Positions 8,530 through 55,329 of a DNA stretch of 64,000 nucleotides are shown here, in pieces. The notes beneath the pieces are model-generated. The model made no database searches and had not been told where the DNA came from. It saw only the letters and a program-made list of their open reading frames with translations. This DNA comes from a virus. The translations under genes were made by a program, and so were the position numbers. Location: positions 2,430 to 66,429 of the IMG/VR virus record IMGVR_UViG_3300031951_000126; one strand, given 5' to 3'. Numbering within the stretch: the stretch's first letter is position 1; every line of letters begins with the position of its first letter.

Positions 8530-9151
8530 CTTGAATAGGTGTTTGTTTTATTGTTTTATTTTGTGTTTCGTCTTCCCATCTTCTGTCACGAAGGTATCGT
8601 ACAGGGTCTTTCCAATACTTGGGTTCGCGACCCGATTTATGGTTACCCACGCCTTCTACAGCAAGTATGCGATCCTCAGCAGAGAGTTTGTTCCATACAG
8701 TTAAGGTCTGTTTCTTATCCACCTTCTTGTTGTATGCTTGCCAAAAATCCTCAAAAGAGTATTTATATGTTATTTCTTTTTTTGTATTATCTATATATGT
8801 AGTGGCGGGTTTTCGGATATCGGGTTTTCCGCTTTCCGTTAAACCGCTCTCGGTTGGCTCGTAGTAGACGATGTAATTAAATCCCCTTGACAACCCATCA
8901 TTACCAATTATACGCACCGAATGTATGTACCCTAAAAGCTCCAACTCGTCCCAAGCGCTAGATATTGAATCCTTACCATCTAGCGAGTAATCGGTCAATT
9001 TGCTTTTGTAAATAACCCAATCATGGGGGAGGGACAACAGAAATGACAATAGCCCCTTTGCTTTTAGGCTTATTGACTTGTCCCTTAAAAATTCAGTAGG
9101 AACCATCGCAAAAGGCACGTTCCTGGTTTTAACAATTTGTCCTGTATTCAT
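8510..9151 (-). CDS. replication initiator, N-terminal winged HTH (lambda O-like)
   Basis: FLRDKSISLKAKGLLSFLLSLPHDW...ELELLGYI; C-terminal FEDFWQAYNKKVDK...DPVRYL..RRWEDE. Confidence 0.85.
   Translation of the reverse strand: MNTGQIVKTRNVPFAMVPTEFLRDKSISLKAKGLLSFLLSLPHDWVIYKSKLTDYSLDGKDSISSAWDELELLGYIHSVRIIGNDGLSRGFNYIVYYEPTESGLTESGKPDIRKPATTYIDNTKKEITYKYSFEDFWQAYNKKVDKKQTLTVWNKLSAEDRILAVEGVGNHKSGREPKYWKDPVRYLRDRRWEDETQNKTIKQTPIQDDNNTW
8760..8865. repeat. putative replication origin: 15-bp-period iterons plus AT-rich tract inside the initiator gene
   Basis: Units at 8806, 8821, 8836, 8851 (CGGGTTTTCGGATAT / CGGGTTTTCCGCTTT / CCGTTAAACCGCTCT / CGGTTGGCTCGTAGT) next to AT-rich 8760-8800. Confidence 0.5.
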
Positions 9152-9156
9152 AAAAT

Positions 9157-9265
9157 AAAAAAAGCTCGCAAGAACCACTTTGCGAGCCTTTAGGTTGGTA
9201 AGAGCAATTCATTACCTTCCAACCCTCGTTTACTGTGGTTCTTTAGCAAACGAGGAGTGAAATAT
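9157..9265 (-). promoter_or_regulatory. structured attenuator-like 5' leader of the replication operon
   Basis: TATGTTTG promoter (9270-9277), hairpins 9224-9255 and 9193-9224, terminator 9164-9187 with U-run directly before the ATG. Confidence 0.7.
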
Positions 9266-9296
9266 TGGGCAAACATAAACTAACCACGCGAGGTTG

Positions 9297-9488
9297 TCAA
9301 GTGTTTTCTTCATTATTTTTTATATGCCAGGTTTCGCAATCCCAGCACATATAGACTTTTTGGTCGTAATCACAATGAGACTCAGCCTCTTTGCGAGTTT
9401 TATAGGTCCGCTTTCCGCAGCCATAAATAGAGTTCTTCATCATGAACCAAATGCAAAATATTGTAAGTACGATAGAAACGATAAACAT
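9297..9488 (-). CDS. small zinc-ribbon protein
   Basis: CGKRTYKTRKEA...YMCWDCETWH; hydrophobic N-terminus. Confidence 0.55.
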   Translation of the reverse strand: MFIVSIVLTIFCIWFMMKNSIYGCGKRTYKTRKEAESHCDYDQKVYMCWDCETWHIKNNEENT

Positions 9489-9552
9489 AGCGCAAATTTA
9501 CACTGTTTAATCTTATTTCCAAGCAAGAACTTGACACAGTGTTGTTTTTCTG

Positions 9553-9560
9553 TATATTTG
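9553..9560 (+). promoter_or_regulatory. Bacteroidota sigma70 -7 element (TAnnTTTG) opening the packaging/morphogenesis operon
   Basis: TATATTTG just before ATG 9565. Same element at 4032, 4465, 4560, 6542, 9493, 14247, 29096, 42532, 43016, 54514, 57476 and 59713. Confidence 0.7.
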
Positions 9561-9564
9561 CAGC

Positions 9565-9786
9565 ATGACAAACTTGAGACCACCAGACGGAAAAATATTT
9601 GTTGACGTTCTTGAAAAAGAAAAGGGCAACGTAACAGCTGTAATTACCCACGTTGGAAAAGAGGTAGATGAAGAAATAGCGATCGGTAAAAAAGTTTCGC
9701 TTGCCAAACTTCCAGACATGGTTGAATTGCAGGGAGTTGAAATGTATTCAATCCACTCATCATACGTACAGTTTATTTATGAATAA
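9565..9786 (+). CDS. GroES-like co-chaperonin (short mobile loop)
   Basis: LRPPDGKIFV...AVITHVG..V.EEIAIGKKV...VELQG.EM..I. Confidence 0.65.
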   Translation: MTNLRPPDGKIFVDVLEKEKGNVTAVITHVGKEVDEEIAIGKKVSLAKLPDMVELQGVEMYSIHSSYVQFIYE

Positions 9787-53120: not shown

Positions 53121-53660
53121 TCATTTTTTTATCTCTTTTACTTTGTCCTTGTATTGATATATCAATTCTTTTATCATGTCAAGCGGTAGGCTGAGCCTTC
53201 CGTTTCTTTGGGCGTGTAGTTCTTCCAGTCTTCCCTTCCCGATCCTCTTCTCAATCCGGATGCCGTATTCGATCAGGTTACCGTGTTTGTGTTGGTTACA
53301 CTCCACGCACTGGCCGTGTACGTTGTCCTCATGGAATCTCAGGTTTGGGTACGAGCCGACACTGAAATAGTGACCGGCATCGTACTTACCCTGTAGCTTC
53401 TTTCCGCAGGATATACACCCCTTCCCTTGGTCACGAAGCCTAATGAATTGGTTAAACACCTGCTGTAGTTCCTTGCGCCATTGTGATACGGATTTGTTCC
53501 GCTCCTTCATGACCTTCAGGTCTCGTTTAACCTTCCTATCTTTCTGCTTGGAGGAATAGGCGAGCATACATTCTATGTTCTCGCACGTTGCCTGCATTGT
53601 GCTGTACTTGGGAATGAATTCCTGTCTACAGATCCGGCACTTCTTATTCCTCACCTTCAT
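53121..53660 (-). CDS. ninG: NinG/Rap Holliday-junction endonuclease
   Basis: CxxC, FNQFIRLRD, CISCG, DAGHY, RFHEDNVHGQCVECN. Confidence 0.92.
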   Translation of the reverse strand: MKVRNKKCRICRQEFIPKYSTMQATCENIECMLAYSSKQKDRKVKRDLKVMKERNKSVSQWRKELQQVFNQFIRLRDQGKGCISCGKKLQGKYDAGHYFSVGSYPNLRFHEDNVHGQCVECNQHKHGNLIEYGIRIEKRIGKGRLEELHAQRNGRLSLPLDMIKELIYQYKDKVKEIKK

Positions 53661-53947: not shown

Positions 53948-54159
53948 AGTTTGATGTTGTTTTGTTCAAGTAGTCTGTAAAATTCTTGGTATATCTCATC
54001 GCACAGCTCCCACTTGTCGGCTGGCATCTCCTCGTACTTGACCTTGCGTCGGAGGTATTCCTTCACGTCGTTGAGTGCGTGTGACATCTCCTGAGCCTTG
54101 TTGCATAGGTCGTACTCGGCCTGATCGTCCGGTAGGTTAAATTCGATTGTCGCTTTCAT
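53944..54159 (-). CDS. conserved small phage protein
   Basis: MKATIEFNLPDDQAEY signature. Confidence 0.7.
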   Translation of the reverse strand: MKATIEFNLPDDQAEYDLCNKAQEMSHALNDVKEYLRRKVKYEEMPADKWELCDEIYQEFYRLLEQNNIKL

Positions 54160-54406
54160 AGGAGTAAACGATTTTAGGTGATGTATTTACAATCTCTCTT
54201 TTTGTTTCTGTCCCGTCATACCAACACAGGTTTTCTTGGGCTTCTTCCAAGGTGTCGTATAAAGTCCTCAGGCATTCGTCATCCCAAAGGCTTGCCTCTT
54301 TCCACTTATAGCCGCCAAAGAAACGTTTTTTCTTCTGTTCGATGGTGTAGTATTCTCGGCCATTGGGCAGCGTGGTCTTTATGATTCGGCATTCTTTTTT
54401 ACTCAT
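54137..54406 (-). CDS. hypothetical protein
   Basis: RIIK...YYTIEQKK..F..YKW pattern. Confidence 0.65.
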   Translation of the reverse strand: MSKKECRIIKTTLPNGREYYTIEQKKKRFFGGYKWKEASLWDDECLRTLYDTLEEAQENLCWYDGTETKREIVNTSPKIVYSYESDNRI

Positions 54407-54498
54407 TGCTCACCTCCTTTTTTTATTTGGTTAGACAGGTCTCGCAATGCGAGAGCGATTATCCACAGGGGGATTGATACTATTATTGCGCTTATCAT
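54403..54498 (-). CDS. 31-aa TM micro-protein (not in ORF track)
   Basis: MISAIIVSIPLWIIALALRDLSNQIKKGGEQ*; after promoter 54514, ATGA-coupled to next gene. Confidence 0.6.
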   Translation of the reverse strand: MISAIIVSIPLWIIALALRDLSNQIKKGGEQ

Positions 54499-54587
54499 GG
54501 CTGTTTATTTTTACAAATATAACTCGTGTGTATTGTTAATGCAATTATTTTTTTTGACTTCCGGAGTGTGACCTCCATACATTTGTC

Positions 54588-54692
54588 CTGTTCTCACATT
54601 GCAGTGTCTGGTAGCAGTGCAATGTGGGAAGATGAGAAATCTAATTCTCAACTCAAAACGCCCTCGGACTACCAGACGAGGGCTTTTTTTTT
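54588..54692 (+). ncRNA. three-hairpin small RNA ending in a terminator
   Basis: TACATTTG promoter 54578-54585; 13-bp hairpin 54591-54630; hairpin 54633-54650; terminator 54660-54683 plus T9. Confidence 0.65.
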
Positions 54693-54882
54693 ACCCGTCC
54701 CCCATCCATCCGAATCTGCCTTGTCGGTGCAATAGGCCACACTTCATGCGAGAGTATGTTGGATCAGACACCTGCCCCTATGCGGGGCGGAGATGTTTGT
54801 TTTTCACGGGGGGAGGCTTTTTCTTTTCTTCTCTTTAGGTTTCTTCTTGACTTGTTTCTTTTCTCTGTCTTTTCTTTTGAAA

Positions 54883-55329
54883 TCACCCAATCTCTAGCTG
54901 TTCATTAGGATCGGGTATGTACAAATCAAGTGTCTCAGCAGCGAACTGCTTGACGTGTTCAAGGTAATCCATAAACTCGCCTGTTGCAAGTTCCGACGTT
55001 TTGCGTGGGATTTTCATCAACTCACCGGTATTCGGGTCGGTGAGTTCAGAGTAAAGGAACCGGCCTTTGAGAAACTCATGCGCGAGGTCACGGTCAACGT
55101 CATGGCCAAGCTCCCTGAGCCTTTCCACTATCATCGCTATGACCACGCCCCAGTAGTATGCGTTCTGCACGTCTGACCGGAACCTGCGTTTCAGTTTGAC
55201 TTCGATGGTCACAGCCAAGTCCTTTTCACGGGACATGGCTCTGACTTCCTCATCGAAGAGGGGGCGATTGTAGATTCGCAATGCCCCCTGTGGTGTGATT
55301 ACTCCGTTGTGCTTCATTTTATCCTCCAC
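54883..55329 (-). CDS. NinB/Orf-like recombination protein
   Basis: RSDVQNAYYWGVV, HEFLK, TSELATGEFMDYLE. Confidence 0.75.
   Translation of the reverse strand: MEDKMKHNGVITPQGALRIYNRPLFDEEVRAMSREKDLAVTIEVKLKRRFRSDVQNAYYWGVVIAMIVERLRELGHDVDRDLAHEFLKGRFLYSELTDPNTGELMKIPRKTSELATGEFMDYLEHVKQFAAETLDLYIPDPNEQLEIG

Follow-up and report, generated by a model that had tools for sequence, protein, structure and literature searches.

Which role could be played by a short, promoter-bearing segment that lies on the plus strand of a phage genome while the genes on either side of it are all on the minus strand? At 54578-54692 of the window, by which we mean the whole stretch of 64,000 nt analysed here (bases 2430-66429 of a virus record that is 66,429 bp long and has terminal repeats), an earlier note on this DNA had described an RNA with a promoter, a 13-bp hairpin, a middle hairpin and a terminator ending in T9, with an exact 9-nt complement between the loops of the first and last hairpins. 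Every one of these parts is present there on the plus strand. The statement that no convincing gene follows also holds for the window, in which no ORF comes after the element at 54578-54692.

A Bacteroidota host is a fair inference for the phage, because the promoter is of the type used in that phylum and because the large-terminase matches all lead to phages of Flavobacteriia (87 of 87 records, at about 24% identity); no close cultured relative of the phage appears among these matches. The large terminase and the portal are of the usual kind, and neither a tRNA nor a tmRNA was found in the window or in the four loci scanned.

The orphan element and its surroundings

The features of the locus, in order of position, are listed here.

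53121-53660, minus strand: NinG gene, flanking the RNA element
54137-54406, minus strand: 89-aa ORF, flanking the RNA element
54403-54498, minus strand: 31-aa hydrophobic ORF, with a promoter-like word, TATATTTG, about 20 nt upstream on the minus strand
54553-54585, plus strand: promoter of the Bacteroidota type, with TTTG(AC) at 54553-54558, a 21-nt spacer and the −7 motif TACATTTG at 54578-54585
54591-54603 and 54618-54630, plus strand: the two arms of hairpin 1, a 13-bp stem with the 14-nt loop GTGTCTGGTAGCAG at 54604-54617
54606-54677, plus strand: loop-loop (kissing or pseudoknot) helix between the words X and X′, 9 bp in the window and 8-10 bp in relatives
54633-54650, plus strand: middle hairpin, with a 6-bp stem and a 6-nt loop
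54660-54692, plus strand: intrinsic terminator, with GCCCTCG at 54660-54666 and CGAGGGC at 54677-54683 around a 10-nt loop, followed by T9 at 54684-54692
54693-54882, plus strand: conserved non-coding stretch of about 190 nt, from a C-rich tract to the NinB stop
54883-55329, minus strand: gene of a NinB-like protein, flanking the RNA element

The RNA gene points towards the NinB unit, with which it is convergent, and would be divergent from the next transcription unit to the left if the word TATATTTG is a promoter. It lies antisense to an intergenic part of the leftward operon and overlaps none of the ORFs that we believe to be genes. ORFs that can be drawn over the element itself (54599-54838 on the plus strand, 54511-54651 on the minus strand) were rejected, being broken by indels of 1-2 nt among relatives. 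The 31-aa hydrophobic ORF is kept in relatives, even in those devoid of the RNA cassette.

The consensus of Bacteroidota promoters, as given in PMC7366714, is TAnnTTTG at −7 and TTTG near −33. The locus has the primary-sigma form of this promoter, with TACATTTG at 54578-54585 and TTTG at 54553-54556, a sequence match that marks a putative start; a simple sigma-70 scan also marks 54554-54583, and the motif is kept in the alignment of all distinct homologues retrieved by BLAST (23 of 23). Inside the spacer, at 54560-54577, there is a short palindrome whose arms vary among relatives yet stay complementary (GGAG..CTCC in the window, CTACA..TGTAG in L038 and L011), and which could be an operator or a small hairpin.

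The loop of hairpin 1 presents X, GTCTGGTAG, at 54606-54614, and the terminator loop holds X′, CTACCAGAC, at 54669-54677. The two are exact complements over 9 nt, and the terminal C of X′ doubles as the base with which the 3′ arm of the terminator begins. The latter has the make-up of an intrinsic terminator, a 7-bp stem with 6 GC pairs and then T9, and its T-run is kept in all aligned relatives; the stock terminator scan skipped 54660-54692 because its loop limit is 8 and the loop here is 10. An A-rich linker lies between the middle hairpin and the terminator stem, and with an A-tract upstream the terminator could act in both directions.

Behind T9, the stretch at 54693-54882 opens with a C-rich tract of varying sequence; a hairpin (54772-54790), the tail of which is rich in T, a G6 run and a nearly invariant polypyrimidine tract of about 75 nt come next in that order, the last of these reaching the NinB stop. 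In the window and most relatives this stretch is conserved above the flanking genes, and its indels are not multiples of 3. Its alignment is too conserved to vary and shows no covariation. The hairpin at 54772-54790 was listed as terminator-like and has U.G on the plus strand at pair 82-98 in 17 of 18. An origin, a rut-like site and a tract prone to R-loops or triplexes are candidate purposes of the 190 nt. Two coding explanations, a K/R-rich frame on the polypurine strand and a read-through of NinB, were set aside since the frame is inconsistent between relatives.

Other relatives carry a different, non-coding-looking module of about 330 nt straight after the T-run (L043:2945-3515 and L027:2945-3530; the same place in L002, L005, L017, L042, L070, L098, L102, L116 and L049). 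Its conserved blocks and hairpins are swapped whole between copies, a 74-78-aa ORF adjoins NinB, and comparing the module with Rfam, Pfam and PHROG and scanning it for tRNAs gave nothing. The ORF that begins at the T-run in these insert-type relatives is unlikely to be real: it belongs to no family, a 4-nt length difference shifts conserved DNA between frames, and all N-terminal differences between two copies (6 of 6) are non-synonymous.

Two relatives (G004, G005) have both the element and the 190-nt stretch, and three others (G001-G003) have neither; two of these three, in which the element is absent at E ≤ 1, are estimated as 100% complete. Since complete relatives lack both, the cassette is accessory.

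A plus-strand RNA with a conserved loop-loop helix

The 110-nt RNA folds with a minimum free energy of −43.6 kcal/mol (z = −5.4), and none of 200 shuffles folds as well. We described the architecture by a descriptor, a terminator whose loop has a complement of at least 7 nt in an upstream hairpin loop within 130 nt. Among the 12 terminator-like hairpins on the plus strand of the window and the 19 on the minus strand, it picked out two distinct terminators (54660-54692, plus; 9164-9187, minus), each with partner words 54-55 nt apart; over 1.32 Mb of fetched loci, with 333 terminator-like hairpins, every match was a copy of one of these two elements. The kissing observation is real and far beyond chance. 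A search of this kind had been proposed in the earlier note, together with the claim that the architecture is common to a sequence-unrelated element of the same genome, and the matches, exactly these two elements and their copies, bear the claim out. Exact copies of the 9-mer in the window are confined to X and X′ themselves; matches with one mismatch number 19, against 9.8 expected, and no conserved site came of them.

Relatives of the element were gathered from relatives of NinB (51 loci), from a promoter-pattern scan of viral contigs (34 stretches) and from the same scan of metagenome contigs (117 stretches, mostly chance matches); across the scanned loci, 91 pattern matches were without the element. 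There are 39 distinct copies in related phage contigs, 33 of which align with the window (variant A) while 6 constitute variant B. In the variant A alignment (33 sequences, 30 proposed pairs), standard pairs fill 99.1% of 990 cells, whereas column shuffles of the same alignment are 91.5% paired, with 0 of 500 reaching the observed value, and partners slid by 1-3 columns are 39-51% paired; the covariation counts given here are of sequences rather than of independent events, and the statistics ignore kinship. The covariation score for variant A was 0.302 versus 0.144.

Changes on both sides of a pair occur at 4 of the 13 pairs of the hairpin-1 stem, where 98.6% of cells are paired over the 33 sequences. 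In the middle hairpin, pair 58-74 of alignment A1 is GC in 17 sequences and AU in 16, and the terminator stem is paired in 100% of cells, with one compensatory pair and with U.G in 6 sequences at pair 90-106. The kissing helix changes on both sides at 4 of 6 scored pairs and is paired in 99.5% of cells; its column pair 35-98 is found as CG (16), UA (9), GC (5) and AU (3). On this comparative evidence, the loop-loop helix is the best-supported part of the predicted structure. By script it has at least 8 bp (8-10 bp) in 38 of the 39 distinct sequences, and the remaining one, which scored 6 because its loop was called too narrowly, holds the same 9-bp pair as three others. Loops of the same sequence pair over a mean of 9.1 bp, as against 5.2 bp for loops taken from different sequences. 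About 13 different X:X′ allele pairs exist, and a change of length in one word is matched in the other. X′ ends on the closing C of the terminator stem in every listed copy of the element except L040, L102 and L177, whose loops were called differently by the script. Variant B shares the promoter of variant A and resembles it in terminator and apical loop frame; it differs in the hairpin-1 stem and in the middle hairpin, and the loop-loop pairing persists in it through words of its own. The earlier note had seen in the two elements of the window a covariation within one genome; the shared architecture on which it relied holds, but the covariation across the genomes of relatives is far stronger evidence.

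The strand can be assigned as well. Pairs of the U.G or G.U kind, which would be C.A on the opposite strand, occur in 25 sequences at one stem pair and in 8 and 7 at two others, as well as in 6 sequences in the terminator and 3 in the kissing helix; because of these pairs, the conserved T-run and the conserved promoter, the structure is placed on the plus strand. The proposal of a structured plus-strand RNA with loop-loop pairing is therefore upheld by covariation, wobble pairs, T-run and promoter together. Contigs from RNA libraries (four of 6 libraries with small shares, at 85% likeness) cover relatives of the region at a depth of about 3 and run across the promoter and the terminator (54511-54776 in X15; 54468-54641 in X18); they carry no start, end, strand or abundance.

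The RNA falls outside any described family in Rfam, a check that had also been suggested beforehand: at the gathering threshold there were 0 matches in the 64-kb window and 0 in five related loci, and the best match in E-value mode was a miRNA model with 22.5 bits, against a gathering score of 90. A BLAST of both elements against a phage collection gave no match. A riboswitch would look different, as the only tertiary contact here is made by the most variable positions, those of the roughly 13 allele pairs, and the alignment contains no invariant pocket-like core outside the stems and the terminator.

Kissing leaders ahead of replication-initiator genes

The second element of the window has the following parts.

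9148-9300, minus strand: sister leader, with the same architecture as the orphan element and an unrelated sequence
9300-9294 and 9277-9270, minus strand: promoter, consisting of TTGACAA, 16 nt and TATGTTTG
9255-9224, minus strand: hairpin 1, whose loop shows GAACCAC, with the middle hairpin next
9187-9164, minus strand: terminator, whose loop shows GTGGTTC, followed by the T-run, TTTTTTTATTTT
9151-9149, minus strand: ATG of the gene for a DnaD-like replication-initiation protein, after which comes primase/helicase

This twin, given as 9157-9265 in the earlier note, is real and has the same architecture, but it is not a leader on the plus strand: it is the minus-strand leader of a replication-initiator gene. 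Its parts come in the same order as those of the orphan element only on the minus strand, which also holds the T-run and the promoter motif; on the opposite strand no T-run follows the hairpins, and the G.U pairs in the terminator fit the initiator-sense strand only. The leader ends 5 nt ahead of the initiator ATG. Over 18 distinct relatives, the 7 pairs of its kissing helix are 100% paired, 2 of them being compensatory, and a third allele of the leader occurs in L222 and L259. An identical loop allele is seen with initiator proteins from 97% down to 53% identity. The use of these words as operator sites of the initiator is disfavoured because the loop allele does not follow the initiator protein type.

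Upstream of the sister leader there is an 83-aa ORF (9400-9651, minus strand), the product of which is cysteine-rich in relatives and the stop of which was placed, from sequence, within the −33 element of the leader, so that the leader appears to be intercistronic with a promoter of its own. One relative (L224) has a leader 100% identical to that of the window over 172 nt and an initiator protein only 60% identical, so that a mosaic boundary lies at the start codon.

The same loop-loop logic is found in the leaders of distant initiator homologues (29-48% identity), whose sequences are unrelated. For 59 distinct leaders of 190 nt, we tested how far the last apical loop of the minimum-energy fold is complementary, in Watson-Crick pairs, to an apical loop upstream of it. 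A loop-loop match of at least 6 bp was obtained in 41 of the 59 leaders and one of at least 7 bp in 35, as compared with 2.1% and 0.3%, respectively, of 5,900 trials in which the last loop was shuffled. By script, the positive leaders come from 5 of the 13 sequence clusters; when the fold was started at the promoter word, 2 further clusters and additional members of others joined them, and in four or five clusters nothing of the kind was seen. The leader of L297, picked out by eye as an instance, was dropped because its fold is a single extended hairpin, and L285 is a doubtful case. In a cultured Bacteroides phage whose initiator is a distant homologue, the genes overlap and leave no leader. 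The covariance model of the orphan element also finds the sister leader in a relative (22 bits, E 0.0025). The loop words of distant leaders (L249-L328) resemble each other (GTCGCAG, GTTGCAG, GTGCAG, ATGCAG, GTACAG, GTTCAG), a likeness that hints at a constraint beyond complementarity.

We propose a class defined by a promoter motif, a 5′ hairpin, a terminator-like hairpin that lies 45-65 nt further down and matches the 5′ loop with a complementary loop word of 6-10 nt, and a U-run. The orphan element, the sister element and 41 of the 59 leaders of initiator homologues all have these features and belong to it, the one departure of the orphan being that no start codon comes after its U-run. Our best reading of the sequence comparisons is that self-kissing leader or attenuator RNAs of Bacteroidota phages are a new class and that the orphan copy would be released as a free RNA of about 100 nt. 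A literature search confined to the main texts of papers brought up no account of a hairpin loop at the 5′ end that kisses the terminator loop of the same RNA.

Proposed attenuation and the competing explanations

The reading that we prefer, with a probability of about 0.42, is an RNA of the attenuator type: whether the 5′ loop is available would be tied to how the terminator folds, and the orphan copy would yield a free RNA of about 100 nt with a possible action in trans. The Bacteroidota-type promoter would start a plus-strand transcript of about 100 nt, which would stop at the intrinsic terminator and fold into three hairpins locked by the 9-bp helix between the loop of the 5′ hairpin and that of the terminator. 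This helix would run directly into the 3′ arm of the terminator, with which it would share its last base (the analogue of X′ in the sister element runs into the U residues of the terminator stem), and the kissing helix and the terminator stem would either stack into one long helix or compete for the bases at the junction. In both cases the state of the 5′ loop would be coupled to terminator folding, and the sign of the effect could be either way. The attenuator reading is suggested by the other class members, which are leaders directly before initiator genes, with promoter, hairpin loop X, terminator loop X′, U-run and AUG in succession. For the orphan copy, a free RNA is the probable main product because, in place of an ORF, the element is followed by a C-rich tract and another terminator-like hairpin. 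Such an RNA would display both partner loops and could meet nascent copies in trans; as it carries both words, its action may be specific to its own allele. Nothing in the analysis speaks for a replication primer RNA, which the earlier note had offered as another possibility.

Several features speak against attenuation. A terminator stem of 7 GC-rich base pairs with an A/U extension should work without the kissing helix, and since the terminators of the distant leaders are long and stable hairpins (e.g., −44 kcal/mol), stabilisation by kissing is not obviously needed. Interference with the closure of the stem would be favoured instead, because the helix nearly fills the loop. A helix of 9-10 bp within a loop of 10-13 nt, leaving about 2 nt free, is sterically tight, and full pairing may be incompatible with a closed stem. 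In the folded monomer both loops may be occupied in cis and hence not be free for action in trans. The diversity of loop alleles fits selection for specificity and could also be neutral compensatory drift; the middle hairpin and the linkers vary too among relatives.

Some known systems resemble the one proposed here. In the control of plasmid copy number, examples are the IncI-alpha/IncB pseudoknot with Inc RNA, antisense attenuation in pT181 and pIP501 and the kissing of RNA I and RNA II in ColE1, all of which use a separate countertranscript from the opposite strand. There, as here, a structured leader precedes an initiator gene, and loop pairing decides expression while loop sequences define specificity groups; unlike there, both partners are on the sense RNA here, and no conserved antisense promoter or terminator was seen. 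Among phages, the P1/P7 c4 RNA is a leader-derived immunity RNA akin to the P4 CI RNA, and in this type matched changes between relatives set specificity. As described in PMC4825925, the P4 CI RNA is processed from a leader and pairs with seqA and seqC of the same transcript, which leads to premature termination of the replication genes; like our element, it is a short phage RNA with complementarity to sequences within the same transcript. The present element differs from the CI/c4 type in that its partners are two hairpin loops of one RNA of about 100 nt, one of them the loop of a terminator, in that no processing is implied, and in its other host phylum and lack of an Rfam match, its function being a prediction only.

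Zipper-type attenuators of pLS20-family plasmids have an upstream stem-loop, a central stem-loop and an intrinsic terminator to which the upstream part is complementary (PMC13401043). They are similar in their three segments and in the leader position that the zipper has before the first genes of a mobile-element operon. In that account, the complementary stretches lengthen the central stem into a nested antiterminator, whose formation precludes the terminator; here, in contrast, the complementary words are in two apical loops and pair crossed, as a pseudoknot compatible with both hairpins. A nested, zipper-like alternative fold of our element was ruled out by energy and topology, as it would melt 13 + 7 bp for 9 bp. 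The loops of sRNA terminators can also serve base pairing, as stated in PMC11979758, and the intrinsic-terminator loop is a pairing site in our element too; in the sRNAs covered there the target is an mRNA in trans, while here the partner is a loop of the same RNA.

Unlikely, but to be taken seriously, is a stand-alone sRNA or decoy that acts in trans on a target elsewhere, with constitutive termination and with a kissing helix that serves only compactness or nuclease resistance. Such an RNA would be well served by its own promoter, by a strong terminator backed by the C-rich tract and a second terminator-like hairpin, and by an accessory cassette without a downstream ORF, and it would agree with a pairing that is kept though nothing coding follows. 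However, the window has no further exact copy of either 9-mer, and a GU-tolerant search of the flanks of the 39 relatives for a third site pairing with either loop gave scattered, non-conserved matches only, none of them covarying. Nor would pure trans action explain the cis leaders of like design that directly adjoin the start codons of initiator genes.

Less probable still, in our judgement, is that the element serves as a regulatory domain at the 5′ end of a longer non-coding RNA, or that its transcription activates a DNA site such as an origin within the 190 nt, the short RNA then being an attenuated by-product. The 190-nt stretch invites such a proposal, being non-coding, conserved above its flanking genes and associated with the element in the five relatives tested, as does the different non-coding-looking module that takes its place right after the T-run in other relatives. 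Against it, the alignment of the 190 nt offers no covariation for an extended RNA, conserved as it is, and two complete relatives manage without the whole cassette, so that an essential origin is not located there.

We regard it as improbable that the loops pair between molecules, into head-to-tail dimers or rings acting as an assembled scaffold. The model would be the pRNA of phi29, which has two mutually complementary loops and whose relatives differ in sequence and keep the complementarity. Our element, too, is one phage RNA that displays two complementary loops whose words differ among relatives while their complementarity is kept. Pairing in cis, moreover, is tight, with 9-10 bp in a loop of 10-13 nt and some 9-12 nt plus a short hairpin as the connector. 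Unlike phi29, however, the phage has a packaging enzyme of the terminase type, with an ordinary large terminase and portal, Rfam gave no pRNA match, and the sister leaders before replication-initiator genes point to regulation.

Finally, it is very improbable that the 9-mers are inverted repeats acting as DNA (operator half-sites or a recombination site) with incidental hairpins, or that the terminator merely serves the converging NinB operon: inverted repeats do read identically on both strands and the upstream A-tract may make the terminator bidirectional, but the U.G pairs of the kissing helix (3 sequences) and the many in the stems would be mismatches in DNA or on the other strand, the words sit exactly in the loops of covarying stems with matched changes of length, and the sister loop allele is independent of the initiator type (97% to 53% identity). 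An invertible segment or recombinase site was ruled out, the repeats being hypervariable.

Within the attenuator reading, a more specific form seems doubtful to us at present but worth stating. The leader would have both kissing partners on its sense strand, the terminated RNA of about 100 nt would report gene dosage to nascent copies in an allele-specific manner, and the result would be a circuit for copy number or immunity that needs no countertranscript. The loop words, which change fast, would be labels of incompatibility between competing phages, and the element at 54578-54692 would be a trans-acting derivative of such a leader that stands by itself.

To our knowledge, the regulatory RNAs of Bacteroidota and of their phages are poorly known, and we know Bacteroidota as a group without the RNA chaperones and the Shine-Dalgarno logic that underlie most textbook mechanisms. 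The architecture described here is compact (about 100 nt), is backed by covariation and includes a contact over a long range, from loop to loop, with its own terminator; it comes back in several versions of unrelated sequence, most of them directly ahead of replication-initiator genes. If the pairing sets termination, this would be a new attenuator design, and the many allele pairs already in existence would make it a natural source of orthogonal RNA parts. If the RNA acts in trans, it would offer phages a countertranscript-free way to sense their own copy number or to exclude relatives.
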